Shown here: one piece after another, positions 1,050 through 63,280 of the stretch | Position numbering within the stretch: the stretch's first letter is position 1 | Layout of the letters: the number at the start of each line of letters is the position of its first letter | Origin: Patescibacteria group bacterium | GTDB lineage: Bacteria; Patescibacteriota; UBA1384; XYA2-FULL-43-10; 1-14-0-10-43-13 | Direction: 5' to 3' | DNA length: 64,000 bases | Assembly: GCA_041649155.1 (NCBI GenBank) | Contig: JBAZNP010000001.1 | Coordinates: 302,564 to 366,563 of the forward strand | Translations under genes and position numbers: made by a program | The notes under the pieces: generated by a model | Seen by the model: the letters and a program-made list of their open reading frames with translations, nothing else | Told to the model about the DNA's origin: nothing | Database searches by the model: none

Positions 1050-1212
1050 CTTTCCTTTCAAAAAAACACGCCATCGGCGTGAAATTAATTATCTTGCCTT
1101 AAGGCTTGGACTTAGCACCTTGTCCTGACTTGTTCAGGATAATCCTGAGCATCGTCGAAGGACGGGTTGCTGGACGGTCACAGGGCCAATTCCCTACCGT
1201 CACTCTTGATAA
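1050..1212 (-). promoter_or_regulatory. SAM-I (S-box) riboswitch aptamer plus intrinsic terminator in the metK 5' leader
   Basis: Reverse complement reads UUAUCAAGAGUGACGGUAGGGAAUUGGCCCUGUGACCGUCCAGCAACC...GGUGCUAAGUCCAAGCCUUAAGGCAAGAUAA. This matches the SAM-I consensus: a P1 helix UUAUC/GAUAA, GGCCC...GCAACC and GGUGCUAA. A perfect hairpin CACGCCGAUGGCGUG followed by UUUUUUU lies just before the RBS AAAGGAAAG. Confidence 0.75.
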
Positions 1213-1241
1213 ATATATTCAGTTGTTAATGTTATGGTAAC
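1212..1241 (-). promoter_or_regulatory. Possible sigma70-like promoter for metK (TTACCA-17-TATATT)
   Basis: Hexamers read on the minus strand and placed just upstream of the riboswitch 5' end. The match to consensus is weak. Confidence 0.25.
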
Positions 1242-4530: not shown

Positions 4531-6445
4531 TCTTCAAGACATATTCGCAATTTGCAAAATATTTTTAATACTATTTTTGAGTTGTTTTGCGTTTTACTAC
4601 CCGCTCGTTTTTCTAACTAAAAATAGAAAGATATCTGCTGGTCTATCAATACCCATATCCTTGTCATTTGAAATAATTATTGGTTATATTTTTTATACTC
4701 TTGGAACCATCAAACAGTTTCCTATATACTACTTACTTTTAATCATTGTTCTTAACATAGTTTTTACCATTCTAATTAGGCAAAAAAGAATTGTGATTAA
4801 AGAAAAGGTTATAAACCTTAACTATAAGAACTTTTTCTTGATGGCCATGTTGGCAATACCAGTACTATTCACGCGTTTTTATGATGCCATTAAAAATGTT
4901 GCTCCAGGCGGTATCGATACGTTTGCTCACATCGCTCTGCTAAAGCAACTAGATGAAATCGGTTACTTGGGTGATACTTTTTATGCTCCAGGTTTTCACC
5001 TGATCATGTATCCCCTCACAAGATTTGTAGACTATGCTGACATTTATCGATTTGCAGGCCCCGCGATAGGAGTAATAATCGTTTTATCTTTTTGGCTGAT
5101 TATGAGATTAATCCTTAAAAATAAGATTGTCTTAGTTGTTGCTGTGTTATTATTATGCCTTCCGGTTTTCAATCAATTAATTCTTCAAATGATCTATTTT
5201 TTTCCTTCAGCTCTAACATTCACATTTTTACTCGGTTCAATTTATCTTCTCCTTTCTCCTAAAGAACTTTCTACAAAATTGAAACTACTGCTCTACTTAA
5301 TCATTTCTATTGGGATATCATTTTCTGTGCCTTATTTTTTTATTGAATATATCGTAGCAATTTTAGCTTTAGTTATTATTTCGATTTTTGCCTCATTTCG
5401 CGATCCTAAATACAAAAAGTTTCTATTCATTGTCTTTTTTATAATATCTTGTTTCGGACTATTTCTTTCTTTAGGTCATGTTTATCTGCAGACGAAACTT
5501 CATAAAGGAGGTTTCCCCGAAATTGCAATTGCCAAAAATCAAGGAGGAAAAATTGTTAGCAGTATAAATACCGATATAGATGATGCTAAGACAGATAATA
5601 AATTAGGACTAGTAGCAAAAAACAGCTTTAATGTTTGCGCCTTCTTATCAAAAGGACTTTTTGCAAAAAAATATCTTTTTCCTGTTTGCCAGACAGGGAA
5701 AGATGTATTAAATATCAAAAATATTCGTGAGCCAGCAGGTTTACTATCTGTGGGAGCCTATTTATGGATTGTTGTTTCGTTGCTTATGCTTTTTTATGGA
5801 ATAAAGAGACGAGACCAGAAGAAAGTCGTTTTTGCTGTTTTTAGCTTGGTTTACGGAATATCAACCCAAACTGGAATTTTAGAAATGAGCTATTATCGCG
5901 GTCGTAGCGGCTGGTATCTTCTCTTTCTGTCGATATTAGGCATATCATCTATAATAGATGAATTACCGCTGAAGAAAATTTCAAAACCAGTATGCTTTTT
6001 TTCTATTCTATTATACCTTCTCGCCTTCACATCTCCACCTGTTTTTTATCGTGCCTATTTCACAGAACCGTTTCTTGTCGCATACAACGCAATAAAAGAA
6101 AACCCTCAAGACAAATTAGTATTCATCACAAATCAGAAAAATTTAACCTTATTGTCAGACAATGTTTCTGTGCTAAACTTACAAAAAACCTCGCTTAATC
6201 AAATAAGTTCAAAAGAGAAAGCATTTGTTGTGTTAGATAAGAAATTCTTTCAAAAAGATCCCGTTCTCTCTCAACAAGCATTATCAATTGATAAGGGATA
6301 TAAACAATTTAGTTCGCAACAAAAACTCCAACAAAAAATACAAGAAAACACTAATTCAGAAATAAAATCCTCCCTTGAATTTTCCAATTATGCGATCTAC
6401 TGGGAAAACGATAATATAGAAGTTTATCAACTAAAGAAAGAGTAA
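4520..6445 (+). CDS. Polytopic membrane protein, putative GT-C fold glycosyltransferase (ArnT/PMT-like) using a polyprenol-P-sugar donor
   Basis: 641 aa with ~11-13 predicted TM helices followed by a soluble C-terminal domain. The context (GT2 polyprenol-P sugar synthase plus small membrane protein upstream) supports the call. No motif-level proof. Confidence 0.4.
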   Translation: MFINLQDIFAICKIFLILFLSCFAFYYPLVFLTKNRKISAGLSIPISLSFEIIIGYIFYTLGTIKQFPIYYLLLIIVLNIVFTILIRQKRIVIKEKVINLNYKNFFLMAMLAIPVLFTRFYDAIKNVAPGGIDTFAHIALLKQLDEIGYLGDTFYAPGFHLIMYPLTRFVDYADIYRFAGPAIGVIIVLSFWLIMRLILKNKIVLVVAVLLLCLPVFNQLILQMIYFFPSALTFTFLLGSIYLLLSPKELSTKLKLLLYLIISIGISFSVPYFFIEYIVAILALVIISIFASFRDPKYKKFLFIVFFIISCFGLFLSLGHVYLQTKLHKGGFPEIAIAKNQGGKIVSSINTDIDDAKTDNKLGLVAKNSFNVCAFLSKGLFAKKYLFPVCQTGKDVLNIKNIREPAGLLSVGAYLWIVVSLLMLFYGIKRRDQKKVVFAVFSLVYGISTQTGILEMSYYRGRSGWYLLFLSILGISSIIDELPLKKISKPVCFFSILLYLLAFTSPPVFYRAYFTEPFLVAYNAIKENPQDKLVFITNQKNLTLLSDNVSVLNLQKTSLNQISSKEKAFVVLDKKFFQKDPVLSQQALSIDKGYKQFSSQQKLQQKIQENTNSEIKSSLEFSNYAIYWENDNIEVYQLKKE

Positions 6446-48139: not shown

Positions 48140-48273
48140 AAGACACAAGATACAATCAACCAATTAAATCTCAATGCTCAATTAATCAATGTTCAAACGT
48201 TTGAATCTTTGGTGATTGATTGTTGAATATTGTTTGGTTATTGTTCCTTGTCTCTTGTATCTTGCTTGTCTCC
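48140..48273. repeat. Family-D element: inverted heptamer-iteron arrays around a central palindrome TTCAAACGTTTGAA
   Basis: AAGACAC AAGATAC ... TTCAAACGTTTGAA ... CTTGTCT CTTGTAT CTTGCTT. About 80% identical to the copy at 63284-63416. Overlaps the 3' end of the recombinase gene. Confidence 0.7.
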
Positions 48274-49329
48274 TAACAAGCTCTTGCCGTGAAACTTTTG
48301 GTGTATTTCTCTTAAATGCTGATCGGTGACATGGGTATAAACCTGAGTGGTTGTTATCGAAGAGTGGCCAAGAAGTGACTGTACGCTTCTAATATCAGCT
48401 CCAGAAATTAACAAGTCAGTTGCAAAAGAATGTCTCAAGGTGTGAGGTGAAACCTTTTTGGCCAATCCTGCTCTTGTTGAATATTTTTTAACAATTCGCT
48501 CAATGGACCTAACCGTTAATCTCGTTTCTTTATTGGATAAGAATAAAGGAGGACTATTCTTCGAGGTCGATTTATCGGCCGAGAAGTTCTCCTGATAGTT
48601 CTCATCTTTCAGATTCGAACAATAGCCTCTCTCTTCCAAATATTCCTTTGTTGAACTTATTGCGCTCATTGACAAAAAAACGACTCTAAGCTTTTTACCT
48701 TTACCCAAGACAGCAATCTCGCCTCTTTCAAAATTTAAATCAGAAACATTTAATGAAGCAAGTTCTGACACTCTCATGCCGGTAGAAAATAAGATTTCCA
48801 GAATTGCACGATCTCGCAAACCAGAGGTAGAGTTTGTGTTAGGAGCATTTAAAATCGAATTCATTTCCTCTGATTCTAGAAAAGTAATTTCTCTGTCTCC
48901 TGTCTTTGCAACCGATACCTTTTCCGGAGACAAAGAACCTATGCCCCTAAAAGCCAGATACCGCAAAAAAGCCCTCAGCGCTAAAATATGATAATTCTGA
49001 GTCGATTTTTTTAGTTCCTTGCCATATCGATCCAGCAGGCGATTTACATGCAAGCGATATTGGCGAACAGCTTCCTGATCAATATCAGCAGGAGCAAGCT
49101 CTAATTTTTCATTTACCATTTTACATTGATCATTTATTTTGTCATTTATCATTTGATCATTTGGGTTTATTTCGGATTTCGGATTTCGGATTTCGGATTT
49201 ATAAGTTTCTAACCAAGTTAGAAACTTAGTAAGGTATCTATCGTAACCAGAAATGGTCAGGGCGGACCGCCCTTTGTCAAGTTCGCAGTATTCTAAGAAT
49301 TCTCTTTTGAGATTAAACAGATCAGGCAT
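48238..49329 (-). CDS. Tyrosine site-specific recombinase (XerC/XerD/integrase family) with a low-complexity N-terminal insertion
   Basis: Catalytic motifs RVSELASL, HTLRHSFATDLL and GHSSITTTQVYTHV. Confidence 0.85.
   Translation of the reverse strand: MPDLFNLKREFLEYCELDKGRSALTISGYDRYLTKFLTWLETYKSEIRNPKSEINPNDQMINDKINDQCKMVNEKLELAPADIDQEAVRQYRLHVNRLLDRYGKELKKSTQNYHILALRAFLRYLAFRGIGSLSPEKVSVAKTGDREITFLESEEMNSILNAPNTNSTSGLRDRAILEILFSTGMRVSELASLNVSDLNFERGEIAVLGKGKKLRVVFLSMSAISSTKEYLEERGYCSNLKDENYQENFSADKSTSKNSPPLFLSNKETRLTVRSIERIVKKYSTRAGLAKKVSPHTLRHSFATDLLISGADIRSVQSLLGHSSITTTQVYTHVTDQHLREIHQKFHGKSLLGDKQDTRDKEQ
49169..49200. repeat. Heptanucleotide tandem repeat (ATTTCGG) x4.6 inside the recombinase coding sequence
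   Basis: tatttcggatttcggatttcggatttcggattt, encoding ...NPKSEIRNPKSEI.... Confidence 0.8.
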
Positions 49330-49942: not shown

Positions 49943-50749
49943 ATGATAGAAGTATATCGATCTTTAATCATTGGAGCCGTTCAAGGTGTAACGGAATTTT
50001 TACCGATTTCGTCGTCGGCCCATTTGGTACTCGTGCCATATATCTTTAATTGGGATTATAAGGGCTTGAGTTTTGATATCGCCCTTCATTTTGGCACCGT
50101 AATTGCAATAGTAGCCTATTTTTGGAAAGACTGGATGGTTTTAATAAAGTCGGCAGCCAGCAGTCGGCAGCCAGCAGATAGTGACCCAGCAAAATATCCA
50201 AAAAATCTTCTTTGGCAGATAATAATTGCAACGATTCCCACAGCTATTATTGGTTATTTAATAAGTGATTACGTAGAAAGTACTTTTCATTCGCCAATTT
50301 TACTTGCATCCAATTTGGTTATATTTGGCATAATCTTATATTTAGTTGATCTTTTTACAAAAACAAGCAGTCAAATTTCCAACATTGGCTACAAACAAAC
50401 ATTTACTGTTGGTCTAGCTCAATGTCTGGCTTTAATTCCCGGCGTGTCACGCTCCGGAATTACAATGATTGCTAGCCGATCACTTGGCCTCGACAGAGAA
50501 AACGCCGCCCGATTTTCTTTCTTATTGGGTACTCCAGCTATGATCGGAGCATTCATATTTGATATTAAGGACTTACCCCTAAGCTCAATAAATTTGCCAT
50601 TCATTTTAGGGGTAATTTCATCAACATTTTTTGGTTTTCTGACAATTAAATATTTGTTACAATATTTAAAGAGGGGCAATTTTTCTGTATTTATGTGGTA
50701 CCGGATCCTGCTTGCAGGAATAGTTCTAGCGATTTATTTTGCAAGATAA
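49943..50749 (+). CDS. uppP: Undecaprenyl-diphosphatase
   Basis: GVTEFLPISSSAHL and ISRSGITM motifs. Confidence 0.9.
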   Translation: MIEVYRSLIIGAVQGVTEFLPISSSAHLVLVPYIFNWDYKGLSFDIALHFGTVIAIVAYFWKDWMVLIKSAASSRQPADSDPAKYPKNLLWQIIIATIPTAIIGYLISDYVESTFHSPILLASNLVIFGIILYLVDLFTKTSSQISNIGYKQTFTVGLAQCLALIPGVSRSGITMIASRSLGLDRENAARFSFLLGTPAMIGAFIFDIKDLPLSSINLPFILGVISSTFFGFLTIKYLLQYLKRGNFSVFMWYRILLAGIVLAIYFAR

Positions 50750-50809: not shown

Positions 50810-51178
50810 ATGTCAAATAATCCAAACGATAAAAAAGAATTCAATTTAGAGGAAAGAACAACAGAATTTGCAAAAAGAGTTATCAGATTGTGTAAATCGA
50901 TACCAAGAAATCCTATAAATGATCGCATTACAGGACAATTGACCGGAAGTTCTGGATCGGTAGGAGCAAATTATCGAGAAGCAAATGATGCACTTGGTAA
51001 GAAGGATTTTATTCTAAGGATTAAGATTTCAAGAAAAGAAGCGAAAGAGGCCATTCATTGGTTAGAATGTTTAAAAGAAGCTAACAATGAAGGATACTAT
51101 CAAGAAATCAATTGCTGTATAAAAGAAGCAACTGAACTGAAGAACATTTTATCTTCAATACTTAATAAAGTCTGTTAA
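50810..51178 (+). CDS. Four-helix-bundle protein (23S rRNA IVS protein / Avd-like family)
   Basis: TGQLTGSSGSVGANYREANDA and KISRKEAKEAIHWL motifs typical of the TIGR02436-type family. Confidence 0.7.
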   Translation: MSNNPNDKKEFNLEERTTEFAKRVIRLCKSIPRNPINDRITGQLTGSSGSVGANYREANDALGKKDFILRIKISRKEAKEAIHWLECLKEANNEGYYQEINCCIKEATELKNILSSILNKVC

Positions 51179-51975: not shown

Positions 51976-53022
51976 GTGATGCGAATAAAACTTATCTATA
52001 AAACACTTATTAATACAATTCTAGTTCTATCTTTGTTAATTAATATTTTAGTTATTAATGTCCCAAGATCTCATGCAGAAGATTTTGCCGTGTTTATATC
52101 TATTGGATCTAATCCAGCAGGAGCAACTGTAAAAGTTGACGGAAAGACCCTCCGAGATGTTTATACTCTTGGTTATGTTACAGATACATACGGCGGAGAA
52201 AGTTGTTTTGCATTAAGAGACCCAAGTAAAGCAAAGGAGTACTCACTTGAAGTTTCTTACCCTGGTTACAAAAGTTACACAAAAAAATTTGATCTGGCCT
52301 TGAATATAATAACGGATGAATGGGCAGCAGAAACAGAAGTTGATAAGCCTAAACCATGCACAAGTTCCACAAAAAGCAGTACTATCGATCTTGGAACTGT
52401 TAAACTTAGTAAGAATACAGAAGCAACAACTCCCAAAGGATCAGTGATTAAGGAATCATCTGGTGACACAGGAGCTTCCCAAGACGCTACCGGACTATCC
52501 ATTCCAACACTAAAAGCTACTGTCCAGCTGTATGAAAACGGTGTTGGAAAAATTAATTTAAACTGGTCTCCCCCAACAAAGCTGCCTTCTGGTGCGACTA
52601 TTTCCGGATATGAAATATCAAGAGGTTCTCCAGACAATAGTAACGCTAACGCTCAAAATAATATGGTAGAAATTGGACAATCAACCACCACCTCTTTTAC
52701 AGATACAGTTGCCGGCAGTCAGACTTATAATTACCAGGTATCATATAATCTATCAAACGGAGATGGCGGCGATTCTTCGAATATTTTGTCCATTACTCTT
52801 ACTAATAACGATATTCAGTTTAATAAATTTATAGTGCAAAACGTCCAGGAAAATACAGACGTAGACTATTGCCCTGGATCCAAGCTTTCACAACCAGCCA
52901 CATGGTTTGCTAGCAGTTTATGCGGACTAGGAGTAGTGCTTTGGAAAGCAGGAGAAAGCCTTATGGATTTCGCCCAAAAACAACTTTTAGCTGTATTAGG
53001 TTACACCAAAACAGGCTATTAA
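51976..53022 (+). CDS. Secreted protein with PEGA-like and fibronectin type III-like domains
   Basis: Signal peptide, then PAGATVKVDGK...PGYKSYTK (PEGA-like), then WSPPTKLPSGATISGYEISRG (Fn3-like). Confidence 0.45.
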   Translation: MMRIKLIYKTLINTILVLSLLINILVINVPRSHAEDFAVFISIGSNPAGATVKVDGKTLRDVYTLGYVTDTYGGESCFALRDPSKAKEYSLEVSYPGYKSYTKKFDLALNIITDEWAAETEVDKPKPCTSSTKSSTIDLGTVKLSKNTEATTPKGSVIKESSGDTGASQDATGLSIPTLKATVQLYENGVGKINLNWSPPTKLPSGATISGYEISRGSPDNSNANAQNNMVEIGQSTTTSFTDTVAGSQTYNYQVSYNLSNGDGGDSSNILSITLTNNDIQFNKFIVQNVQENTDVDYCPGSKLSQPATWFASSLCGLGVVLWKAGESLMDFAQKQLLAVLGYTKTGY

Positions 53023-53035
53023 GTTATAAATAATC

Positions 53036-55873
53036 ATGATTAGAAATATTAAAACATACAAAAAGACTCTGTTTGTTGCTTTCATATGCTTCATTCTTTC
53101 TGCTTGCTTATTTTCATTTGCTCCGAAAGCTCATGCCGCCTTTCAAATAGAGCCGATATATTCAGTTTTAAAAAATACTGACTCAGGCACAGGCCAACAA
53201 ATTAAAGAAATTTGGAGCAAAATAATTACTTATGTTAATTATTTTATTATTGCAGTGCTAATATTTGTTGCTTTTGCACAGATACTTCGCATTAATGTTA
53301 ATACGTATGGAATAAAAAAAATTCTTCCAGCCCTTTTACTCGCCATAATTGCAGCCAATTTTAGTTTTTTGTTCTGTCGATTACTTGTCGATCTGGCAAA
53401 TGTCACCTTGAGTCTGTTTATTGAAAACCCAGTTGACCATTCTGCTCTTTCGGCTAATTTTAGTGGAAGCTGGGCCAATCCTACAAATGCTTTGGAAGAT
53501 GGTAGCGTCGGAGACATAGTTTGGTTTATGATATCACAACTATTTGTTATAGTTGGCGCTGTTTTAGTACTTATTCTAGCGTATCTTTTTATTATTAGGA
53601 TTTGGATGGTTTACTTTCTAGTTGTCCTTGCCCCTCTTGCTTTTATGTCTACAGTCCTGCCTGCCACAAAAAGCCTTTTCAATCAGTGGTGGAGCAACTT
53701 TGCCAAATGGGTTTTCATGCCGGTAGTTTCAGTATTCTGGATATGGCTAGGCAATCAATGGGTGGGATCAATTAAGAATGATTCTATGATGAGCTATGTC
53801 TTTGCTGGAGTCTGTTACTATCTGGCAATCACCACTCCGTTCAAGATGGGTGGAGCGATAATGAGCGGCTGGGCCAATTTTGGCAAAAAAGCATACAACA
53901 ACTGGGCTACCAGAAAAGCAAAGGAGAAGTGGGTTGATCCTGCAATACAAGAAGTTAAAGATAACGCAATGTCTTGGTACAGATCACAAGGAAGCGGACA
54001 TAAATATAACCCGATTGGCATGATTGCCAGACGAGGAAAGAGAGTTGAAGACAGAAGAAAAGACGCGACAGAAAGAGCAGCAGCATGGGATAATACCCTC
54101 TACAGAGAAGCAATGGGTGGCAAAGAAGGCCAATATTTAAGCAAAGCCAAACAAGAAGCCATAGGAAAACGTAAAGCTGACATTAGTTCTCTATTAGGCG
54201 AAAAAGAATGGATGGAGCAACATTTAGAGGAACTTCACCTGGGAACAGAAGCTGGGAAGGAAGATTTAGACAGCCGCGTTCAGTTTTATTTTAGAACACA
54301 AGGCACCGATAAGGCAGTGGAAAGACTGAATTCTCAAGCGAAAGCTGATGTGCTGGCAGAGGAACCAGGCGAAGGGCAAGGAGACTTTTTCAAGAACCAA
54401 AATTACGTCCATTGGTACAAAAAATGGGTTGAAGAAAATGCGAAAAACAGACCTGCTGTTGCTTCGGCAAAAAAACTTGAGGCTGATATCCTATCAGATA
54501 CATATCTTGATGCAGCGAAACTCAATCTAACTCTTTTGGGCTATAAAGCTTCAAAAAATACTTTGATCGACGTAGAAAAAATCCTGAAGGATCCAACATC
54601 CCTACCAGAAGAAGAGAGAAACAAACTAGAAAAAAAATACCGTATTGGCAATATCGCACAACTTAGCGGGGCCGAAAGAAAGTCTTTAACGACAATATAT
54701 CAAGAGACAAAGAAGAAAAATGATCTTGCAGAATCCGACTTTAGTCTGCAAAGTGCCGCTCTTTTAAAGAAATATGCAAAGACGGACAGTCAGGGAAATG
54801 TTGTTGGGTTTAAAGGCATGTCAGATATTTTAGAGAAAATGTGGAAGGATCAAAATGGTAATTTTACCACCAGCATAAATAAAGTTAGAGAGATGGCTGA
54901 TGTGAACGGAATTTCAGAAGCTGCAAAAGGTATGTGGAATGACAGGCTAGCAAAAGAGCTGGCCAACGACCACAACGAAGAACTCAGGGCGACCCAATCA
55001 AAACGTTCTAGTCTTGGCGCCGAGATCTATCTTCAAACCGAGATGCCTGCTGATTATGAACTTCATCTACAAGGAAGAGATGGCGCTATAATCGGCTCAA
55101 GAAGCAAAAAGGTTTATGCCGAAGTCAACCACTCAACAAAGGCAGCTCCGCAAAATCCCGAAACAGCAACAATTTATCAGCTAAAAGGCGAACAAGAAGC
55201 CAGAATCGCTTCAACCGATTGGGAAAGAGGAAAAGCTTCAAGAGATGTCTTGTCAAGCTCTGTTGCTGAAGCCTTGGAAAAATTTATGAAAAGTAGTCAA
55301 ACTCTCAACAAAGCTACTACAAATGCGATGGAAAAAATGGCCAACGAAATTGCTAAATCACAAAATGTTTCTGCCGAAAAATTAAAGGGATTTGTTGAGA
55401 CCTATAAGAAAAAAACAGATTTCACCGAAGAAGAAAAAACAAAGATGAAACAATACCAAGAAGAAACACTTAAAGATATTGCAAGCGATTTTTATAACAT
55501 AAAGGGGACAAAAAAAGAAGCTGGGTACAACCAGAACATTCATGTTTATCATGATGAAACAGGCAACCTAAAAGTTAGCTTACTAGACAGTGTTAACAAA
55601 GATAGCGCCCAAGGTGCCCTAAAGCAACAAGCTGAGATAGCCAGCATATTAAACACATCAATTATTAATCATACTTCAAGAAGCGGACCGGGCGCCGATG
55701 CCCGAAACGGTTTAATGGCTAGAAGGATCTTAGCAACTCCGGTTGTAAACACAGAAGCACATGTTGCATTTTATGAAAAACCCTACCTGCCTCCAAAGAT
55801 TGTATCTGAAAAAGAGATTGAAGAATATGGAGACGAACCAATAGAATTTAAAGAATTCGGAGAAAATGCATGA
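53036..55873 (+). CDS. VirB6/TrbL/TcpH-like polytopic membrane protein with a long charged coiled-coil C-terminal domain
   Basis: Signal peptide, ~7 TM helices in the first ~300 aa, then ~640 aa of K/E-rich hydrophilic sequence. This is the architecture of Gram-positive VirB6 analogues. No sequence-level proof. Confidence 0.45.
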   Translation: MIRNIKTYKKTLFVAFICFILSACLFSFAPKAHAAFQIEPIYSVLKNTDSGTGQQIKEIWSKIITYVNYFIIAVLIFVAFAQILRINVNTYGIKKILPALLLAIIAANFSFLFCRLLVDLANVTLSLFIENPVDHSALSANFSGSWANPTNALEDGSVGDIVWFMISQLFVIVGAVLVLILAYLFIIRIWMVYFLVVLAPLAFMSTVLPATKSLFNQWWSNFAKWVFMPVVSVFWIWLGNQWVGSIKNDSMMSYVFAGVCYYLAITTPFKMGGAIMSGWANFGKKAYNNWATRKAKEKWVDPAIQEVKDNAMSWYRSQGSGHKYNPIGMIARRGKRVEDRRKDATERAAAWDNTLYREAMGGKEGQYLSKAKQEAIGKRKADISSLLGEKEWMEQHLEELHLGTEAGKEDLDSRVQFYFRTQGTDKAVERLNSQAKADVLAEEPGEGQGDFFKNQNYVHWYKKWVEENAKNRPAVASAKKLEADILSDTYLDAAKLNLTLLGYKASKNTLIDVEKILKDPTSLPEEERNKLEKKYRIGNIAQLSGAERKSLTTIYQETKKKNDLAESDFSLQSAALLKKYAKTDSQGNVVGFKGMSDILEKMWKDQNGNFTTSINKVREMADVNGISEAAKGMWNDRLAKELANDHNEELRATQSKRSSLGAEIYLQTEMPADYELHLQGRDGAIIGSRSKKVYAEVNHSTKAAPQNPETATIYQLKGEQEARIASTDWERGKASRDVLSSSVAEALEKFMKSSQTLNKATTNAMEKMANEIAKSQNVSAEKLKGFVETYKKKTDFTEEEKTKMKQYQEETLKDIASDFYNIKGTKKEAGYNQNIHVYHDETGNLKVSLLDSVNKDSAQGALKQQAEIASILNTSIINHTSRSGPGADARNGLMARRILATPVVNTEAHVAFYEKPYLPPKIVSEKEIEEYGDEPIEFKEFGENA

Positions 55874-56760
55874 TTTTTGAACTTTCCGATTTTGATAGAA
55901 TAAAAAAATACTCTTTTATTATGGAAGAGAAAACTTTTGCTGAATTGCAAGAATATATTTCTTCGCTGTCTAAACAAGAGTTTTATTTAATTTGGTCGTT
56001 TATCTTTGGATCTGAAATTTTTGGCGAGATTTCTTCTCACAAGATAAAACTGACCGAATTTTTAGCCAAAGAGAATAATGTCAAAATTATGTCAGAGGAT
56101 GCAACAAGAATAGTTTTTACTATTGCCATGTATTACAAATCCGGCTTTAATGCGATAAACAAAGCTTTAGAAAATGAAGTCGGCTCATTGTTCCAACTTT
56201 CAGAGTCTTATAATTCAAATGGCCGCATTGTCACATGGCAGACAATTGCCAAAAGAGCTTTTGAAATCAGAAACGGCATACAAAATCACGCATATCTTTT
56301 AGTGAAAGACTCTGTTAAAGAAGTTATGAGTTACTATAAAATCGACAACCATAAGGATGCCGAGGCAATAGAAAAATTACTCTCACTATCTCTTGAGATA
56401 TTGAAGGTATTTGTCTTAAAAAAGGATTTTTCGTTTAAAGATGCGGAATCTAAAGATTTGTTTGTAAAAATAGAACACTTTTATTCCATGACAAACCATC
56501 TGAAGATGGACATCGAATCCCTGAAAAATGAGGAAAGTTACGATAAAGTTCTAACATACATTGTAAATATGAGGAATGTTTTTCAAGCAAAATTGCATTT
56601 AATTAATCAAAAAATGCCATTAAATGATTATACCGCGGCTCAAAATTTTATTATAAAAAACATGGCGAGAAAAGAAATGGACCGGTATTTGAGTCTGGAA
56701 GAAATTAACCGATTGGGCATAAAACTTGATAGGCTGCAGCCGTCACAGCCCAAAGCATAA
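55870..56760 (+). CDS. Hypothetical all-alpha cytoplasmic protein, translationally coupled to the VirB6-like gene
   Basis: ATGA overlap with upstream gene. No TM segments. 296 aa. Confidence 0.4.
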   Translation: MIFELSDFDRIKKYSFIMEEKTFAELQEYISSLSKQEFYLIWSFIFGSEIFGEISSHKIKLTEFLAKENNVKIMSEDATRIVFTIAMYYKSGFNAINKALENEVGSLFQLSESYNSNGRIVTWQTIAKRAFEIRNGIQNHAYLLVKDSVKEVMSYYKIDNHKDAEAIEKLLSLSLEILKVFVLKKDFSFKDAESKDLFVKIEHFYSMTNHLKMDIESLKNEESYDKVLTYIVNMRNVFQAKLHLINQKMPLNDYTAAQNFIIKNMARKEMDRYLSLEEINRLGIKLDRLQPSQPKA

Positions 56761-56770
56761 AGGAGAACAT

Positions 56771-57088
56771 ATGGAAAATGAACACGGGTTATCACCTAAA
56801 GATATGGGCATTGATAATGAAGAAGAAACACAAATAGTAACAGGGCAAGAAGATTTGTCTTCGCTAAATAACGGAATTCATATCGAAAACGAAGCGACTC
56901 CAGTAAATGAAGCCGTGGAACATACAGCAAGTCAAAATGAACATACGGCCCAAAGGCCTGTAATGGGCGGAGAAATCCCAAAATCCTCTCCCCGACCAAC
57001 TATCGGAAATGAAAGCGTGATGAAAGATTTTGCAGATATTGCCGAAGGAATTGAAAAAGAGTCAGGCTTGGACAACTTGTCAAAATAG
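56771..57088 (+). CDS. Small acidic hypothetical protein
   Basis: AAGGAG RBS 6 nt upstream of ATG. 105 aa, E/N/G-rich. Confidence 0.35.
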   Translation: MENEHGLSPKDMGIDNEEETQIVTGQEDLSSLNNGIHIENEATPVNEAVEHTASQNEHTAQRPVMGGEIPKSSPRPTIGNESVMKDFADIAEGIEKESGLDNLSK

Positions 57089-57240: not shown

Positions 57241-57645
57241 TTGCAGTTTAAGGTTCCGCAAAATATAGACATGCAGGACAGAATCTTGGGGCCTCTTACC
57301 ATGATTCAGTTTATTTATGCTGTAATCGGCAGTGGAATTTGTTACGCAATTTTTAGTACAGTTCCTAAACCTTTTTCATTTGTGCTCATTCTACCAATAG
57401 CATTATTCGTACTAGCTCTAATTTTTCTAAAAATAAACGAACGCCCTTTTCTAGATTTTTTATTCTCACTTTCCGCCTTCATGACCACACCCAAAAATCG
57501 TGTCTGGCAGCACGATGTTGCGTCCAATTTAAGCGTGGAAATCTATCAATCCAGCCCAATAAATCAAAATAACAATATTCAAACGAAGCAGTTTACCCAT
57601 GAGCAAATACAGGAAATGGCCAAACGAATTGATCAAAAAAGATAA
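57241..57645 (+). CDS. PrgI/VirB3-like small membrane protein
   Basis: TTG start with a GGAGGAG RBS. Two TM helices (GPLTMIQFIYAVIGSGICYAIF; FVLILPIALFVLALIFL). Positioned just upstream of VirB4 as in Gram-positive T4SS loci. Confidence 0.5.
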   Translation: MQFKVPQNIDMQDRILGPLTMIQFIYAVIGSGICYAIFSTVPKPFSFVLILPIALFVLALIFLKINERPFLDFLFSLSAFMTTPKNRVWQHDVASNLSVEIYQSSPINQNNNIQTKQFTHEQIQEMAKRIDQKR

Positions 57646-57670: not shown

Positions 57671-58627
57671 ATGGCAAATAATGTAGGTAGCACACAATCG
57701 AATATCAAAATTGCAGGCATAAAAGACGGTATTGTTTTTTTGGAAGACGGAGGTTACCGCGTAATCTTGTCATGTTCAACGGTTAATTTTGCTCTTAAAA
57801 GCGAACAGGAACAAAATTCATTGGTTTTCCAATATCAGAGCTTTCTGAATTCACTCCATTTTCCTATTCAAATTGTTATGCAGTCAAAGAAACTCGATTT
57901 AACGCCCTATCTTCAGAAAGTAAATAACTTAAAAGAGAAACAAACGAATGAACTGATCAAAATGCAAGCTACTGACTACATTGATTTCGTAGGCAATTTG
58001 ATTAATGTAGCGAATATTATGAAGAAGAATTTCTATGTGGTCATCCCCTACCAGCCACTTTCTCTCACTAAAGGATCAATGTTTGACAAGATATTTAAAA
58101 AACCGGCAGCAGGCCCACTCCGAGTCTCCGAAGAAGAACTTAAACGGCACAAAGAAGAATTGGTGCAAAGAGCCAATACAGTCGCTATGGGATTAGGAAG
58201 CATGGGCATACAGTGTGTTCAATTAAATACCGAGGAAATTATTGAATTGTTTTATAAGATATATAATCCGGAGATTTCAGGAAAAGAAAGATTGGGAGAC
58301 ACCGACAAATTGACCTCATCATTTATTACAAATGAGAAGGGCCAGCAAGCAGAAGAGCAAAAAACAGAGGAAACCGTGATTGATAATACAGCAATCGTGC
58401 AACAAAAACAGAAGCAAGATTCGCAAATTGCGCACAGACAAGATCTAAATCAGAATACAGATAACGCCGCATCCGACAAAGTCGAAGCAGGCGTCCCTGC
58501 TTCCGCAGAGCGGAATGCGGGACAAACAGCAGATAGTAGTAATCAGGGCACAGCCGCACTAACTCCAGTAAATCCACCAGCACAGGCAGAACAAACCAAC
58601 CAAACTGGGAATGGATTTGGAGCATAA
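57671..58627 (+). CDS. VirB4 N-terminal-domain-like protein with a ~100-aa disordered Q/E/T/N-rich tail (encoded separately from VirB4)
   Basis: IKDGIVFLEDGGYRVILSCSTVNFALKSEQEQNSLVFQYQSFLNSLHFPIQIVMQSKKLDLTPYL resembles the first ~150 aa of long Gram-positive VirB4 proteins (Tn916 Orf16/TcpF type). Confidence 0.45.
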   Translation: MANNVGSTQSNIKIAGIKDGIVFLEDGGYRVILSCSTVNFALKSEQEQNSLVFQYQSFLNSLHFPIQIVMQSKKLDLTPYLQKVNNLKEKQTNELIKMQATDYIDFVGNLINVANIMKKNFYVVIPYQPLSLTKGSMFDKIFKKPAAGPLRVSEEELKRHKEELVQRANTVAMGLGSMGIQCVQLNTEEIIELFYKIYNPEISGKERLGDTDKLTSSFITNEKGQQAEEQKTEETVIDNTAIVQQKQKQDSQIAHRQDLNQNTDNAASDKVEAGVPASAERNAGQTADSSNQGTAALTPVNPPAQAEQTNQTGNGFGA

Positions 58628-58742
58628 CATAATCAATAATTCCAAAATCCTAATGACTAATTACAAATAAAATGTCAAATGATTTAATGTCAAAAAACTC
58701 AGTAATTTGAAATTAGGATTTAGAAATTAGCAAATAATCAAG

Positions 58743-60566
58743 GTGAATATGGCAGACTTAGACAACAACACACAAAATACCTCTTCTGATCCTCGAGCCA
58801 TCGCTCAGGCAAATATAAAAAGCCGGGAAAACATGGCTGCTTTAGGCGTTTCTCCGGAAGAATTAGCCAAAGGCACTTCATCAATAAGAGATATCATCGC
58901 TCCGGCAGCTTTTGCCATTAACTCAAACTTTCTCCAAATAGGATCATTATTCACAAAAACCCTATTTGTTTTTACTTACCCCAGATACATTGAAACAAAT
59001 TGGCTTTCTCCTATTATTAATTACGACATAACGATTGATATGGGAATGTATATTCATCCGCTCGAATCAAAAGATGTAATGATGGACTTAAAGAAACAGG
59101 TCGGTAAGATCGAGTCGTCCATGATGATTGGACAAGAAAAAGGAGCTCCAAGGGATCCAGAAATGGAGACTGCATTAGGGGACGTGGAAGCTTTAAGAGA
59201 TGTTCTTCAACGAGGGGAAGTAAGACTTTTTCAATTCGGCCTATATTTTACGGTGTATGCCACCTCTCAAGAAGAGCTTAAGACCATTACCGAACAACTT
59301 GAATCAACATTGGGTGGTCTTTTAATTTACACAAAAGAAGCACTGTTCCAAATGGAGCAAGGGTTTACTTCCACTCTGCCCTTAATGATGGATGAGCTTA
59401 ACGTTTTGCGAAATTTTGATACTGGCTCTCTGTCCTCCACTTTCCCCTTCACCTCGACAGAATTAACTCAAGATGACGGAATTCTTTACGGAATAAACAG
59501 GCATAATAATTCGCTTATCATTTTTGACCGGTTTAACCTTGAAAACGCAAATGCAGTAGTCTTTGCTAAATCCGGCTCAGGTAAATCTTATTTTGTAAAA
59601 CTTGAAGCACTTAGATATTTAATGCTTGGAACCGATGTGATTGTAATTGATCCTGAGAATGAGTATAAAGCTCTCTCAGAAGCAGTCGGCGGAAGTTATC
59701 TTGAAATATCGCTAAATTCAGATAAAAGAATAAATCCTTTTGATTTGCCGGTCGGATCAGAAGAATCAGGCGAAGATGTCTTAAGATCAACAATCGCCTC
59801 TCTGCATGGCCTGATCAATTTGATGGTTGGAGGTTTAAATCCGGAAGAGGATGCTGTAATAGATAAAACCTTGTATGAAACATATGCCCTAAAAGACATT
59901 ACTACCGATCCGGAAAGCCAGAAAAATGAGCCGCCGTTAATGCAGGACTTTTACAATGTCTTATCAAATATGGCAGGAACAGAATCACTTCGGGCAAGAC
60001 TGTCGAAATATGTGGAAGGTACTTTTGCTTCGCTTTACAACCAAAAGACCAATTTTCAACTAAATCCTGGTTTCGTTGTTTTCTCTGTTCGCGATCTTGA
60101 GGAGCAGCTCAGGCCGGTAGCAATGTACACGATTTTGGATTACATTTGGACCAAAATACGAATGGACATGAAACAAAGAGTGATGATCATAGACGAGGCA
60201 TGGTGGATGATGCAATACGAAGATTCCGCCAAGTTCTTACATGGGCTTGCTAAAAGAGCAAGAAAGTATTACCTCGGCTTAACCATTATCAGTCAGGACG
60301 TGGAAGACTTTTTGGGAAGCAAATATGGCAAAGCAGTCGTGGCAAACTCTTCGATGCAGATTCTAATGAAGCAATCTACCGCATCAATTGACATTGTTTC
60401 CGAGGTATTTAATCTTACTGAAGGGGAAAAATATTTGCTTCTTGAATCAGATGTCGGAGAGGGCTTATTCTTTGCCGGCTTGAATCACGTGGCGATGAAA
60501 GTAGTGGCTTCATACACAGAAGACAAGATTATAAACACCGATCCGAGCAAAATGGTAGAAGGATAA
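58743..60566 (+). CDS. VirB4/TrsE/TraC-family type IV secretion ATPase
   Basis: Walker A FAKSGSGKSYF, Walker B VMIIDEAWWM, and the VirB4 N-domain pattern IRDIIAPAAF...FTKTLFVFTYPRYIETNWL. RBS AAGGTG. Confidence 0.8.
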   Translation: MNMADLDNNTQNTSSDPRAIAQANIKSRENMAALGVSPEELAKGTSSIRDIIAPAAFAINSNFLQIGSLFTKTLFVFTYPRYIETNWLSPIINYDITIDMGMYIHPLESKDVMMDLKKQVGKIESSMMIGQEKGAPRDPEMETALGDVEALRDVLQRGEVRLFQFGLYFTVYATSQEELKTITEQLESTLGGLLIYTKEALFQMEQGFTSTLPLMMDELNVLRNFDTGSLSSTFPFTSTELTQDDGILYGINRHNNSLIIFDRFNLENANAVVFAKSGSGKSYFVKLEALRYLMLGTDVIVIDPENEYKALSEAVGGSYLEISLNSDKRINPFDLPVGSEESGEDVLRSTIASLHGLINLMVGGLNPEEDAVIDKTLYETYALKDITTDPESQKNEPPLMQDFYNVLSNMAGTESLRARLSKYVEGTFASLYNQKTNFQLNPGFVVFSVRDLEEQLRPVAMYTILDYIWTKIRMDMKQRVMIIDEAWWMMQYEDSAKFLHGLAKRARKYYLGLTIISQDVEDFLGSKYGKAVVANSSMQILMKQSTASIDIVSEVFNLTEGEKYLLLESDVGEGLFFAGLNHVAMKVVASYTEDKIINTDPSKMVEG

Positions 60567-60658: not shown

Positions 60659-61831
60659 ATGGGGATGGATAAAAAAGACAGCAATATGAGCATTGCTAAA
60701 ACACTTACAGTCGCCAGTATTTTGTCTGTATTGGCGATAGTTGTGCTGGCAGTAAGCATCGCAGGGATGGGCTTTAAGGGCGAAGGAGAGCCTACGCCTT
60801 ATGGTGATGATGGAATAAAAGCTGGCGCAGGAGGCTGCTACCTGAAAGATGAGGCTTTTACTGATATTGGAACAATAAAAAGTGTCGATGATGTTTTTTC
60901 CAAGATTGGCAGTAACTACTCAGCTTTAAATAACGACAAAAATAAAGAAAACCTTCAAAAAATAATTACCAGCTCAATAAATGCTGAAAACGGCACAAGC
61001 GTAAAAGGCATTAATCCTGCAATTTTAATTTCTTTTTATTACGGCGAACAAACCTTTGATCCAGATGATGATTACAAAGCATTCGGCTGCGGCCACTATT
61101 CAAAAGGAGCTAGTGACGCTGGTTTTGACAACCAACTAACTTGTGCCCTTCCCGCAATTAAAAAGGCCATAGAAAAAGATCCTGTTTACGACACACCTGC
61201 CGGCGAAAATACATGGACCCGTCTTCTTTATCATTATGTTGGGGGCGACAAAGATCACATAGTGGGCAAATATGCTTATGATGTTAAAAAACTAGGCTAT
61301 GTGTCAGATAGTAGCGAAGCTAGAATTCAGCTCTTAAATGATTTAGTGCCGGATCAAGTAACTTGCGAGGCCGCAGCAGGAAAAAGTATTTTCGCCAGCC
61401 TAGATCAAGTTCAAATGTATTTTGGTACGACCCCAGAGCAGATAAAAAAACACCTGGAAACAATGAATTTTATGGGACAGGATATAACTGTAAATGAAAT
61501 GATGGTGGATGATTTGAAAAACGTTGAGACAGCATTAAAGAAAATAAATTACAAGATAACCAGCATAGGGGCATATAATAATAGAGAAAATGTAAATAAC
61601 CCGGGGAATTCAAGTTCACATGCATTTGGATTAGCAATTGATATTAATCCCAGTGCAAATCCGAATGCGAAAAGGCCGACAGACAGTAAAGAACGAGATC
61701 CTTCTGCCTGCAAAACCGACATCCCTACGCAGGTAGTTAAAGCGTTTGAAGATAATAACTTTTTCTGGGGCGCAAAATTCAAGGACATTTGCGATCCAAT
61801 GCATTTCCAATATGGTGGAAACTGGCAATAA
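60659..61831 (+). CDS. Membrane-anchored peptidoglycan hydrolase, peptidase M15 (VanY/LAS) family
   Basis: N-terminal TM anchor. C-terminal zinc-ligand motifs SSHAFGLAIDINP and DPMHFQYGG. Confidence 0.7.
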   Translation: MGMDKKDSNMSIAKTLTVASILSVLAIVVLAVSIAGMGFKGEGEPTPYGDDGIKAGAGGCYLKDEAFTDIGTIKSVDDVFSKIGSNYSALNNDKNKENLQKIITSSINAENGTSVKGINPAILISFYYGEQTFDPDDDYKAFGCGHYSKGASDAGFDNQLTCALPAIKKAIEKDPVYDTPAGENTWTRLLYHYVGGDKDHIVGKYAYDVKKLGYVSDSSEARIQLLNDLVPDQVTCEAAAGKSIFASLDQVQMYFGTTPEQIKKHLETMNFMGQDITVNEMMVDDLKNVETALKKINYKITSIGAYNNRENVNNPGNSSSHAFGLAIDINPSANPNAKRPTDSKERDPSACKTDIPTQVVKAFEDNNFFWGAKFKDICDPMHFQYGGNWQ

Positions 61832-62032: not shown

Positions 62033-63280
62033 ATGAATGTTCATCTAAAAAAATTAACTTACAAAGTGTATATTGTCTCAGCGGTTATATTGATGGCAAT
62101 TGTTTTTGGAATTTGGGTTTTGACCAACTCATTTTTAAGCATCAAAGTATCACCTAGAGACGCATCTGTTTTCATTGACGGCGAACAAATAGAAGTAAAC
62201 AGTTTTGGCTTCGCCAAGGAGCGACTTTCTTTCGGCGAGCATCAAATAAAGATTGAACTGGACGGCTATGTTAGCATGATAAAATCAGTTATATTAAAAA
62301 GAGGAAGAACGAATAGTCAAAACATCACTCTTAAGACATTGCCAGCCACGGTAAAAATTGCAAATTTTGGCAGCTTTTTGACAAAAGGCGTTAATTCTGA
62401 TGAGTTTTTCTACCTTGGAAATGACGGAGGGGCAATTTTCAGAACAAAAATTCAGTTGAATGACAGCGGAATTGTAATTCCAACCAGCAATGCTATAACC
62501 AATTCAAATCTCTGGGGAATTAATGAAATAATCTGGTCGCCGAAGAAAGACTTAGCGCTCTTTAGAAAATCTGACGGCGTTTACTTGTTTGACTTCAAAA
62601 AATATGACTTTGTGAACCAGACGGAAACTTTGTGGGGCGAAAATGTCGGAAGCATTGCATGGGCGCCTGATGATTCCAAAATCGCCTATTACGCCTCAGA
62701 TGAAAAAACGCTCATTTTCTCTAACGCAGATAATTCGAGCAAAGAAAGAATTTTAAATCTTGAAAATATAGATATAACCAACCCAGTATTAAGATGGTCC
62801 CCTGATTCAGAATGGTTAGCCATAATCCCCAGAAATTCGAATAAAAATGACAATAAAATATACCTTTTAAATGCATATAGCAGAGTTATAAAACCGGTAA
62901 TCAACACTGGAAATAAACTGGATGTTACTTTTTCTCAAAATAATAAAATATTTTATTCCAGTTTAAGCCGCGGCACGCAAGGTTCTTCGACTATATCAAC
63001 CATAAACACAGATGGGACTGAGGATTCAGCTTTAAACCTTTACACCAATATAAATTGTATTTTAATGCTAGATCAGGGGGACAATATTTTAGCAGCTTCG
63101 CAAGACGGAGAAAGTCAAGAAGAGTCGATTTTCAAATTTAATATCAAAAATAACAAACAGGAAGATTTTTCAATCAAACTATCAGAAAACGAGTCAGTTA
63201 ATACGCTTTTGACCACAGTTGATGATAAAGTTGTAATTTACGAAACAGAAAGCGGAATTTACGCAGTAAATATAAATTAG
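62033..63280 (+). CDS. Membrane-anchored protein with PEGA-like domain and TolB-like beta-propeller repeats
   Basis: N-terminal TM helix. ISIKVSPRDASVFIDGEQ...GEHQIKIELDGYVS (PEGA-like). Repeated WSPD/WAPDD motifs as in TolB. Confidence 0.45.
   Translation: MNVHLKKLTYKVYIVSAVILMAIVFGIWVLTNSFLSIKVSPRDASVFIDGEQIEVNSFGFAKERLSFGEHQIKIELDGYVSMIKSVILKRGRTNSQNITLKTLPATVKIANFGSFLTKGVNSDEFFYLGNDGGAIFRTKIQLNDSGIVIPTSNAITNSNLWGINEIIWSPKKDLALFRKSDGVYLFDFKKYDFVNQTETLWGENVGSIAWAPDDSKIAYYASDEKTLIFSNADNSSKERILNLENIDITNPVLRWSPDSEWLAIIPRNSNKNDNKIYLLNAYSRVIKPVINTGNKLDVTFSQNNKIFYSSLSRGTQGSSTISTINTDGTEDSALNLYTNINCILMLDQGDNILAASQDGESQEESIFKFNIKNNKQEDFSIKLSENESVNTLLTTVDDKVVIYETESGIYAVNIN

Follow-up and report, generated by a model that had tools for sequence, protein, structure and literature searches.

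According to Quiñonero-Coronel et al. (2025, Microb Genom, PMC12102498), the type IV secretion systems (T4SSs) of Patescibacteria are monophyletic and related to the monoderm MPF-FATA class. They are also the first T4SSs reported to be essential for the growth of their owner. Their most abundant component, TrsD, shows remote homology to the N-terminus of VirB4; 2,272 TrsD homologues have been counted, 1,664 of them adjoining virB4, and the protein, which has no assigned function, is given as essential for Ca. Southlakia epibionticum ML1 (PMC12102498). According to the same study, TrsD does not lie beside VirB4 in Gracilibacteria- and Peregrinibacteria-type genomes. Earlier work had found the T4SS gene cluster, which has no recognisable relaxase or coupling protein, to be essential for epibiotic growth (Wang et al. 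2023, Cell, PMC10633639), and in the structure-annotation table of that paper the neighbour of VirB4 is still ‘uncharacterized’. Here, we describe one such pair of genes in a 64,000-nucleotide stretch (the window) of contig JBAZNP010000001.1 from a Patescibacteria group bacterium (assembly GCA_041649155.1); coordinates are positions in the window. The upstream gene, open reading frame 1 (ORF1; 57671-58627, + strand), encodes a TrsD/TraD-like protein, and the downstream gene (ORF2; 58749-60566, + strand) encodes a short VirB4-family ATPase, VirB4 being the hallmark ATPase of T4SSs. Transposon sequencing in Ca. Southlakia epibionticum has shown the gene homologous to ORF1 to be essential for epibiotic growth (PMC10633639, as cited in PMC12102498). 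Weighing homology, complementarity, fold and conservation together, we consider it likely that ORF1 and ORF2 are the naturally split VirB4 of a chromosomal Patescibacteria T4SS, the two products of which would dock in trans.

The closest described systems are the Patescibacteria loci themselves, which share with the locus in the window a VirB6-like protein, PrgI/VirB3, TrsD directly upstream of virB4 and peptidoglycan hydrolases downstream (PMC12102498, PMC10633639). Nothing essential differs from the published account (PMC12102498). What is not spelled out there is the region missing from the adjacent VirB4, nor the long tail of the ORF1 protein with its conserved IDN helix, and the words split, fission, truncated and disordered are not used in its text. 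The two-gene arrangement, TrsD plus a short VirB4, is a conserved and typical pair of Patescibacteria T4SSs that has already been described. Stating that the adjacent VirB4 lacks exactly the region represented by TrsD is a small clarification and no discovery. Beyond the literature, we add two minor leads: the IDN motif of the tail and a series of fusion architectures. TrsD does not appear by name in the main text of Guglielmini 2014.

Outside Patescibacteria, the TrsD/TraD protein of pGO1/pSK41/pIP501-type plasmids (NCBIfam NF041427, found with the VirB4 proteins TrsE/TraE) resembles ORF1 in being a stand-alone protein of ~200 amino acids encoded just upstream of an N-terminally short VirB4 (~650 amino acids). 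Identity to ORF1 is only 21-32%, and the plasmid proteins are about 200-275 amino acids long and have neither a long tail nor the IDN motif. Moreover, these systems belong to conjugative plasmids with a relaxase and a coupling protein, whereas the locus in the window is probably chromosomal and shows neither among the flanking genes scanned. The ‘TraD’ of pELF is a VirD4-like protein and is irrelevant here. In Peribacillus, an annotated trsD gene and a DUF87 gene are arranged like ORF1 and ORF2, the VirB4 beginning where ORF2 begins.

Two further comparisons concern VirB4 proteins made as one chain. The fused VirB4 proteins of monoderms (the CD1110 family, the 869-amino-acid protein of Clostridium argentinense pRSJ17_1 and the 830-amino-acid DUF87 protein of Bacillus cereus pJ62_2) have the same domains in the same order as ORF1 plus ORF2, and a PrgI gene precedes them. 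They differ in being one polypeptide, with a ~70-residue acidic linker in place of the ORF1 tail, stop, spacer and ORF2 leader. TrwK, the VirB4 of R388 (PDB 7O41, 8RTB), is the sole fold family matched by the ORF1 model, and the ATPase domain of ORF2 aligns to TrwK residues 446-735. TrwK is, by contrast, a Gram-negative protein, a single chain of 823 amino acids with about 10% identity to ORF1, and a VirB7/9/10 outer-membrane complex is not expected in the monoderm locus of the window. Cryo-electron microscopy of the R388 system revealed that VirB3 wraps the N-terminal domain of VirB4 and supplies a transmembrane anchor (Macé et al. 2022, PMC9259494), an arrangement paralleled by the adjacency of PrgI and ORF1 in the window.

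ORF1 runs from an ATG start to a TAA stop and encodes 318 amino acids. The first-pass annotation, made from the sequence alone, had likened it to the start of long Gram-positive VirB4 proteins, and profile, pairwise, alignment and fold evidence all bear this out, identifying ORF1 as the N-terminal piece of a split VirB4. In particular, the NCBIfam model of CD1110 VirB4 (NF045971) aligns ORF1 residues 17-124 with model positions 11-118 (E 3.8e-5), and the Mbov_0397 VirB4 model (NF045975) places ORF1 on positions 126-233 (E 9e-10). A sub-threshold match to Pfam TraC_F_IV falls on model positions 128-179. Pairwise comparison gives the same picture: BLASTP aligns ORF1 28-199 with residues 63-209 of the fused C. 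argentinense VirB4 (E 2e-11), and hhalign aligns a profile of 121 ORF1 homologues with residues 40-211 of the same 869-amino-acid protein (94.7% probability, E 6e-8). Stand-alone homologues of the ORF1 domain form 1,678 clusters in the protein database. The similarity of ORF1 to VirB4 N-domains is significant at the profile level.

As for its family, ORF1 belongs to PF26593 (‘TraC-like’): precomputed matches to this family (E at most 1e-5) exist for the identical protein on another contig (L009) and for all 120 listed homologues. Our Pfam scan of ORF1 returned only sub-threshold matches to TraC_F_IV and FRD2 and did not report PF26593, a model that was probably missing from the library copy. 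The NCBIfam TrsD/TraD model (NF041427) covers ORF1 over positions 20-200 of 201 (E 3.7e-5), and a protein 88% identical to ORF1 carries the NCBI name ‘TraC family protein’.

A phmmer search of ORF1 against PDB sequences found no match even at E 10, and a comparison of folds was therefore needed. An AlphaFold2 model built on the 121-sequence alignment (mean predicted local distance difference test score, pLDDT, 78) contains a confident alpha/beta domain at residues ~10-210 (57698-58300, + strand; pLDDT mostly 85-95), followed by disorder at residues 214-226 and again C-terminal of a helix at residues 240-266. When the model was compared with the PDB using Foldseek, the 14 best hits were all TrwK/VirB4 chains from the T4SS of R388 (probability 0.99-1.00, 176-236 aligned columns), and no unrelated chain stood above E 0.03. 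Since the Foldseek output carries no residue ranges, the equivalence of the ORF1 domain to the first ~200 residues of VirB4 rests on the coordinates of the sequence profiles.

ORF2 supplies what follows. It encodes an N-terminally short VirB4-family ATPase of 605 amino acids, comprising the second half of the N-domain and a P-loop C-terminal domain. The CD1110 model matches residues 33-583 over positions 172-732 of 752 (366.1 bits against a cutoff of 325, E 3.7e-109), while the Mbov_0397 model places ORF2 on positions 292-893 and TraC_F_IV places it on positions 293-375. Pfam P-loop_TraG is matched with E 1.6e-28, and residues 241-592 match the crystal structure 4AG5, the C-terminal domain of a Gram-positive VirB4 (E 1.9e-44). 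The Walker A (AKSGSGKS, 59565-59588) and Walker B (VMIIDEAW, 60180-60203) motifs are intact, as first noticed, and their G/G/K/S and D/E residues are invariant in the VirB4 alignment. The impression that ORF2 is a complete VirB4 has to be given up: its CD1110 match begins only at position 172, and BLASTP aligns ORF2 44-571 with residues 279-852 of the fused C. argentinense protein (E 3e-59). Across the multiple alignment, every split-type VirB4 starts 30-60 residues ahead of the conserved RDIIAPxxF block, and the fused VirB4 carries about 235 extra N-terminal residues.

The start of ORF2 also needed revision. The program-made list of open reading frames begins it at GTG 58743, a codon inside the ribosome-binding site AAGGTG (58740-58745). 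A gene caller run on the independent contig with identical sequence (L009) chose ATG 58749, which gives 605 amino acids; this ATG aligns with the start codon of four relatives, and the GTG is not conserved. For both reasons we assign ORF2 to 58749-60566, which leaves a spacer of 121 bp. The end of the gene and the ribosome-binding site remain as originally read, but the start moves to the ATG and the gap is not 115 bp.

Taken together, the two proteins cover consecutive parts of one VirB4. The first ~170 positions of the CD1110 model are absent from ORF2, and positions 11-118 are covered by ORF1; all three full-length models (CD1110, Mbov_0397 and TraC_F_IV) place ORF1 ahead of ORF2 without overlap. 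Both proteins are under strong purifying selection.

This two-gene state is widespread. ORF1 relatives occur in 465 species-representative genomes, and the best 120 homologues are all 284-375 amino acids long, from Patescibacteria and with PF26593. We surveyed gene order in the best 80 loci of the 465 species genomes. A short VirB4 lies directly downstream on the same strand in 60 of the 80, in all three possible frame offsets, and none of the 80 Patescibacteria loci encodes a fused TrsD-VirB4; related genomes, too, have the split arrangement that was suspected from the window. A further 10 loci run out of contig. Distant members keep the order VirB6/TrbL-like protein, PrgI, TraC-like protein, VirB4 of ~610 amino acids, and M15 or CHAP hydrolase.

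Beyond Patescibacteria, PrgI, TrsD and VirB4 are found fused or separate in every colinear combination, and their order is strictly kept in all of these architectures. Three separate genes occur in Pontibacillus and in Peribacillus, where one is annotated as trsD. TrsD is fused to VirB4 in C. argentinense (869 amino acids, L006:3815-6424) and B. cereus (830 amino acids, L094:2893-5385). On an Embleya plasmid, PrgI is instead fused to TrsD in a protein of 349 amino acids (L092:3069-4118). Its PrgI part spans residues 14-101 (E 1.3e-17), its TrsD-like part residues 144-296 (hhalign 97.3%), and a separate short VirB4 follows. A Vescimonas plasmid encodes a triple fusion of 942 amino acids (L093:3090-5918), in which residues 131-251 are the TrsD-like domain (hhalign 96.2%) and residues 559-899 the P-loop domain. 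Finally, a Haloglomus plasmid (L008:3986-5611) encodes a 541-amino-acid protein made up of a TrsD-like domain, an acidic linker and a DUF7139 membrane region, followed by a DUF87 ATPase of 781 amino acids. The separation of the TrsD-like gene from the ATPase gene in haloarchaeal plasmids (Haloglomus and others) means that the split is present in Archaea too. Colinear fusions of this kind are classical evidence for one physical unit. A more tentative idea makes the split the ancestral condition of VirB4 in monoderms and archaea, followed by independent fusions to VirB3 or to VirB4. An ancient gene fission or a separate subunit, both put forward in the first-pass annotation, fits these data, and the direction could be either fission or fusion.

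Read in this way, the folded domain of ORF1 (residues ~10-210) is the first, membrane-proximal subdomain at the N-terminus of VirB4, and ORF2 provides the remainder of the protein, from the second N-domain half to the P-loop motor domain. We infer that the ORF1 protein docks in trans between the PrgI/VirB3-like membrane protein and the short VirB4. Such docking would rebuild the VirB3-VirB4 module, complete the N-terminal domain of the hexameric motor and anchor the ATPase hexamer beneath the VirB6-like channel. An ATPase made of two polypeptides, with a VirB3-like anchor in addition, matters for modelling and purification, given that a construct of VirB4 only would be without the membrane-proximal subdomain. 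The published annotation of TrsD already implies as much.

Several observations weigh against a VirB4 simply divided between two genes. In 10 of the 80 surveyed loci, all from genomes labelled Peregrinibacteria, Peribacteria or Gracilibacteria, no VirB4 lies within 2.5-4 kb downstream of the TrsD-like gene. ORF1 scores 23.6 bits against the NCBIfam TrsD model, which has a curated cutoff of 200, and so falls outside this narrower subfamily. The template modelling scores (TM-scores) of the Foldseek hits are modest, at 0.31-0.37, as normalised to a query of 318 amino acids of which a third is disordered. The first of these points allows some independence of the two genes. In one alternative, the TrsD-like protein is an accessory factor in its own right (such as an adaptor, regulator or assembly chaperone) that descends from a VirB4 N-domain but has ceased to act as the subdomain missing from ORF2, the short VirB4 being functionally complete alone. 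The unlinking of TrsD from virB4 in Gracilibacteria- and Peregrinibacteria-type genomes, which the literature also reports (PMC12102498), would suit such a factor. So would the long tail with an invariant motif of its own gained by the clade of ORF1, and the homologues with transmembrane segments of their own (N-terminal in Pontibacillus, in the DUF7139 region in Haloglomus). On the other hand, the complementarity of ORF1 and ORF2 is exact, and the fused forms have the same domain as the N-terminus of VirB4. The order PrgI-TrsD-VirB4 is kept in every architecture, and conservation of the domain is very strong, 33 positions being invariant across 121 sequences. On balance we regard an independent accessory factor as unlikely, though as the most serious competitor of a split VirB4.

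A second alternative, raised in the first-pass annotation, is that ORF1 is a duplicated VirB4 N-domain, a paralogue beside a complete VirB4. It has in its favour that ORF2 keeps part of the VirB4 N-terminal region, as seen from weak Pfam matches to CagE_TrbE_VirB and TraC_F_IV at residues 133-216. BLASTP of ORF1 against ORF2 finds no similarity (the best E is 0.14, in low-complexity sequence), so ORF1 duplicates no part of ORF2. The two fall on different, consecutive parts of every full-length model, and ORF2 is without the stretch of the CD1110 model that a complete VirB4 would contain. We therefore judge a duplication very improbable.

The remaining explanation, that the split is an artefact (a frameshift from sequencing or assembly) or the recent decay of a fused gene into a pseudogene, is suggested by two reading frames that differ and lie only about 120 bp apart, and it can be dismissed as scarcely credible: the spacer is AT-rich non-coding DNA with stop codons in every frame (six in the frame of ORF1, three in that of ORF2 and others in the third), so the genes could not be brought together by one indel; the ORF1 protein is found identical in independent assemblies; the two-gene state is conserved across hundreds of Patescibacteria species with varied spacers and frame offsets; and purifying selection on both proteins is strong.

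The spacer itself (58628-58748) has a GC content of 22%, against 37% for the window, and contains AATGTCAAA twice. It matched no Rfam family, promoter and terminator signals in it did not exceed shuffled expectation, and no second copy of it was found within the window. Relatives have quite different DNA at this position. The spacer measures 2 bp in a 94%-identical relative (L011:4946-4947), 17-24 bp in others (24 bp at L010:8949-8972) and ~250 bp, with different repeats (GGAATGACAA), in another (L012 ~4973-5220). In two further loci (L001 and L002), a whole gene for a 119-amino-acid 23S_rRNA_IVP/bAvd-like protein sits between the trsD-like gene and virB4 (L001:7115-7474). We treat the spacer of the window as a variable spacer because it is not conserved in relatives, carries no signal and belongs to no Rfam family. 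The stretch that separates the TrsD-like gene from virB4 is hypervariable. A gene of the same 23S rRNA-intervening-sequence family, encoding a four-helix-bundle protein of 122 amino acids, is also present in the window, at 50810-51178 (+ strand), between the undecaprenyl-diphosphatase gene and the T4SS locus.

The tail of ORF1 deserves separate treatment. Its last ~108 residues are rich in Q, A, T and N, and hydrophobic residues make up 13% of them, as against 39% in the domain. The first-pass annotation had described a low-complexity tail with a clean stop, and this holds: the tail is Q/N/T-rich, mostly disordered in the AlphaFold2 model and ends in a clean TAA. It is not featureless, however. 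Residues 236-266 (58376-58468, + strand) hold a conserved V-I-D-N-x-x-x-V motif and a helix. Among the 121 homologues, D238 and N239 show no variation, I237 and V243 reach at least 90% conservation, and the rest of the tail is unalignable; the motif stands at the start of the predicted helix (residues 240-266, pLDDT 85-93). A second element lies at the very end (58607-58624, + strand), where the window has GNGFGA, a case of an N-x-F/Y-G-x end motif. The C-terminus has the form [F/Y/W]-G-x in 48 of the 121 homologues (e.g. NKDYGW and NQNYGQ). All 121 have between 86 and 173 residues after the YNP motif.

These features mark out one clade. In the survey of 80 loci, a long tail with the IDN motif was present in 33 of the 37 proteins of at least 280 amino acids and in none of the 43 shorter ones. 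Most other TrsD-like proteins of Patescibacteria have 219-265 amino acids, with tails of about 17-60 residues. The IDN motif and the N-x-F/Y-G-x end are both confined to the clade of the window, which includes metagenome-assembled genomes labelled Berkelbacteria, and the IDN motif is absent from the homologues in Firmicutes and haloarchaea. Other lineages have additions of a different kind, namely an N-terminal transmembrane helix in the Pontibacillus homologue and the C-terminal DUF7139 membrane region in that of Haloglomus. The alignment and the structural model present the tail as a clade-specific elaboration with at least one putative conserved docking element, and the tail with its IDN helix is probably a flexible arm for partner binding. 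A bolder and quite tentative idea is that the TrsD-like protein is more than a detached subdomain, its tail (the IDN helix and the N-x-F/Y-G-x end) serving as a recruitment arm that tethers substrate, hydrolase, pilins or the short VirB4 to the ATPase. If this doubtful idea were true, the arm would give a relaxase-less, growth-essential T4SS an adaptor function that normally comes from the coupling protein. Both the tail motif and the fusion series are modest, testable leads on binding partners.

The genes around the pair complete the picture of the locus, all of them on the + strand. Upstream, the first is a VirB6/TrbL-like polytopic membrane protein of 945 amino acids (53036-55873); its Pfam TrbL match (E 6.8e-4) is below the curated cutoff, and precomputed TrbL_3/TrbL matches exist for the identical gene on contig L009 and for homologues in L001 and L003. 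It is followed by a 296-amino-acid protein with no Pfam or NCBIfam match (55870-56760), which has counterparts of 292-299 amino acids in the same position in L009-L011, and by an acidic protein of 105 amino acids (56771-57088, with the start chosen by the gene caller) that matches no family and measures 105 amino acids in L009 and 109-112 in L010 and L011. Next comes a small membrane protein of the PrgI family, VirB3-like (57241-57645; Pfam PrgI 42.1 bits against a cutoff of 27, E 1.3e-10). Its gene ends 25 bp before ORF1 in the window, and all related loci have it at the corresponding place. Downstream of ORF2 lies a cell-wall hydrolase with Peptidase_M15_4 (60659-61831; 60.3 bits against a Pfam cutoff of 25), which is likely a VirB1 analogue; relatives of the locus have an M15_4 or CHAP hydrolase at the same position. 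With a VirB6-like protein, a PrgI/VirB3-like protein, TrsD, VirB4 and a hydrolase together, the locus has, by sequence criteria, the make-up of an MPF-FATA-like Patescibacteria T4SS, probably a chromosomal one.

The next gene downstream encodes a protein with PEGA and a beta-propeller (62033-63280, + strand; Pfam PEGA 23.8 bits against a cutoff of 20.8). It may be part of the T4SS, being conserved in relatives (L003, L010 and L011). PEGA-domain proteins are encoded on both sides of the T4SS locus, at 51976-53022 and 62033-63280. The nine genes upstream are of a housekeeping kind: a class I tRNA synthetase, TsaD, FemAB, a Mur ligase, a tyrosine recombinase, PAP2, BacA, the 23S_rRNA_IVP protein and a TPR protein. 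Neither a coupling protein nor a relaxase was found among these nine genes and the downstream hydrolase and PEGA genes, the remaining ~40 kb of the window not having been scanned protein by protein.

Just upstream of the T4SS locus lies BacA/UppP, the gene for undecaprenyl-diphosphatase, both in the window (49943-50749) and in a relative with an ORF1 homologue of only ~60% identity (L001:1-255). A neighbour shared in this way suggests that the locus has a stable place in the chromosome and is not part of a mobile element. A tyrosine recombinase gene is located close to the T4SS locus, at 48238-49329. As to family models, the PrgI protein and ORF2 of the window weakly match opposite ends of the actinobacterial NCBIfam family SCO6880. 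Far from the locus, an S-adenosylmethionine (SAM; S-box) riboswitch at 1086-1215 (- strand) scores 56.1 bits (E 2.9e-10), above the Rfam gathering threshold.

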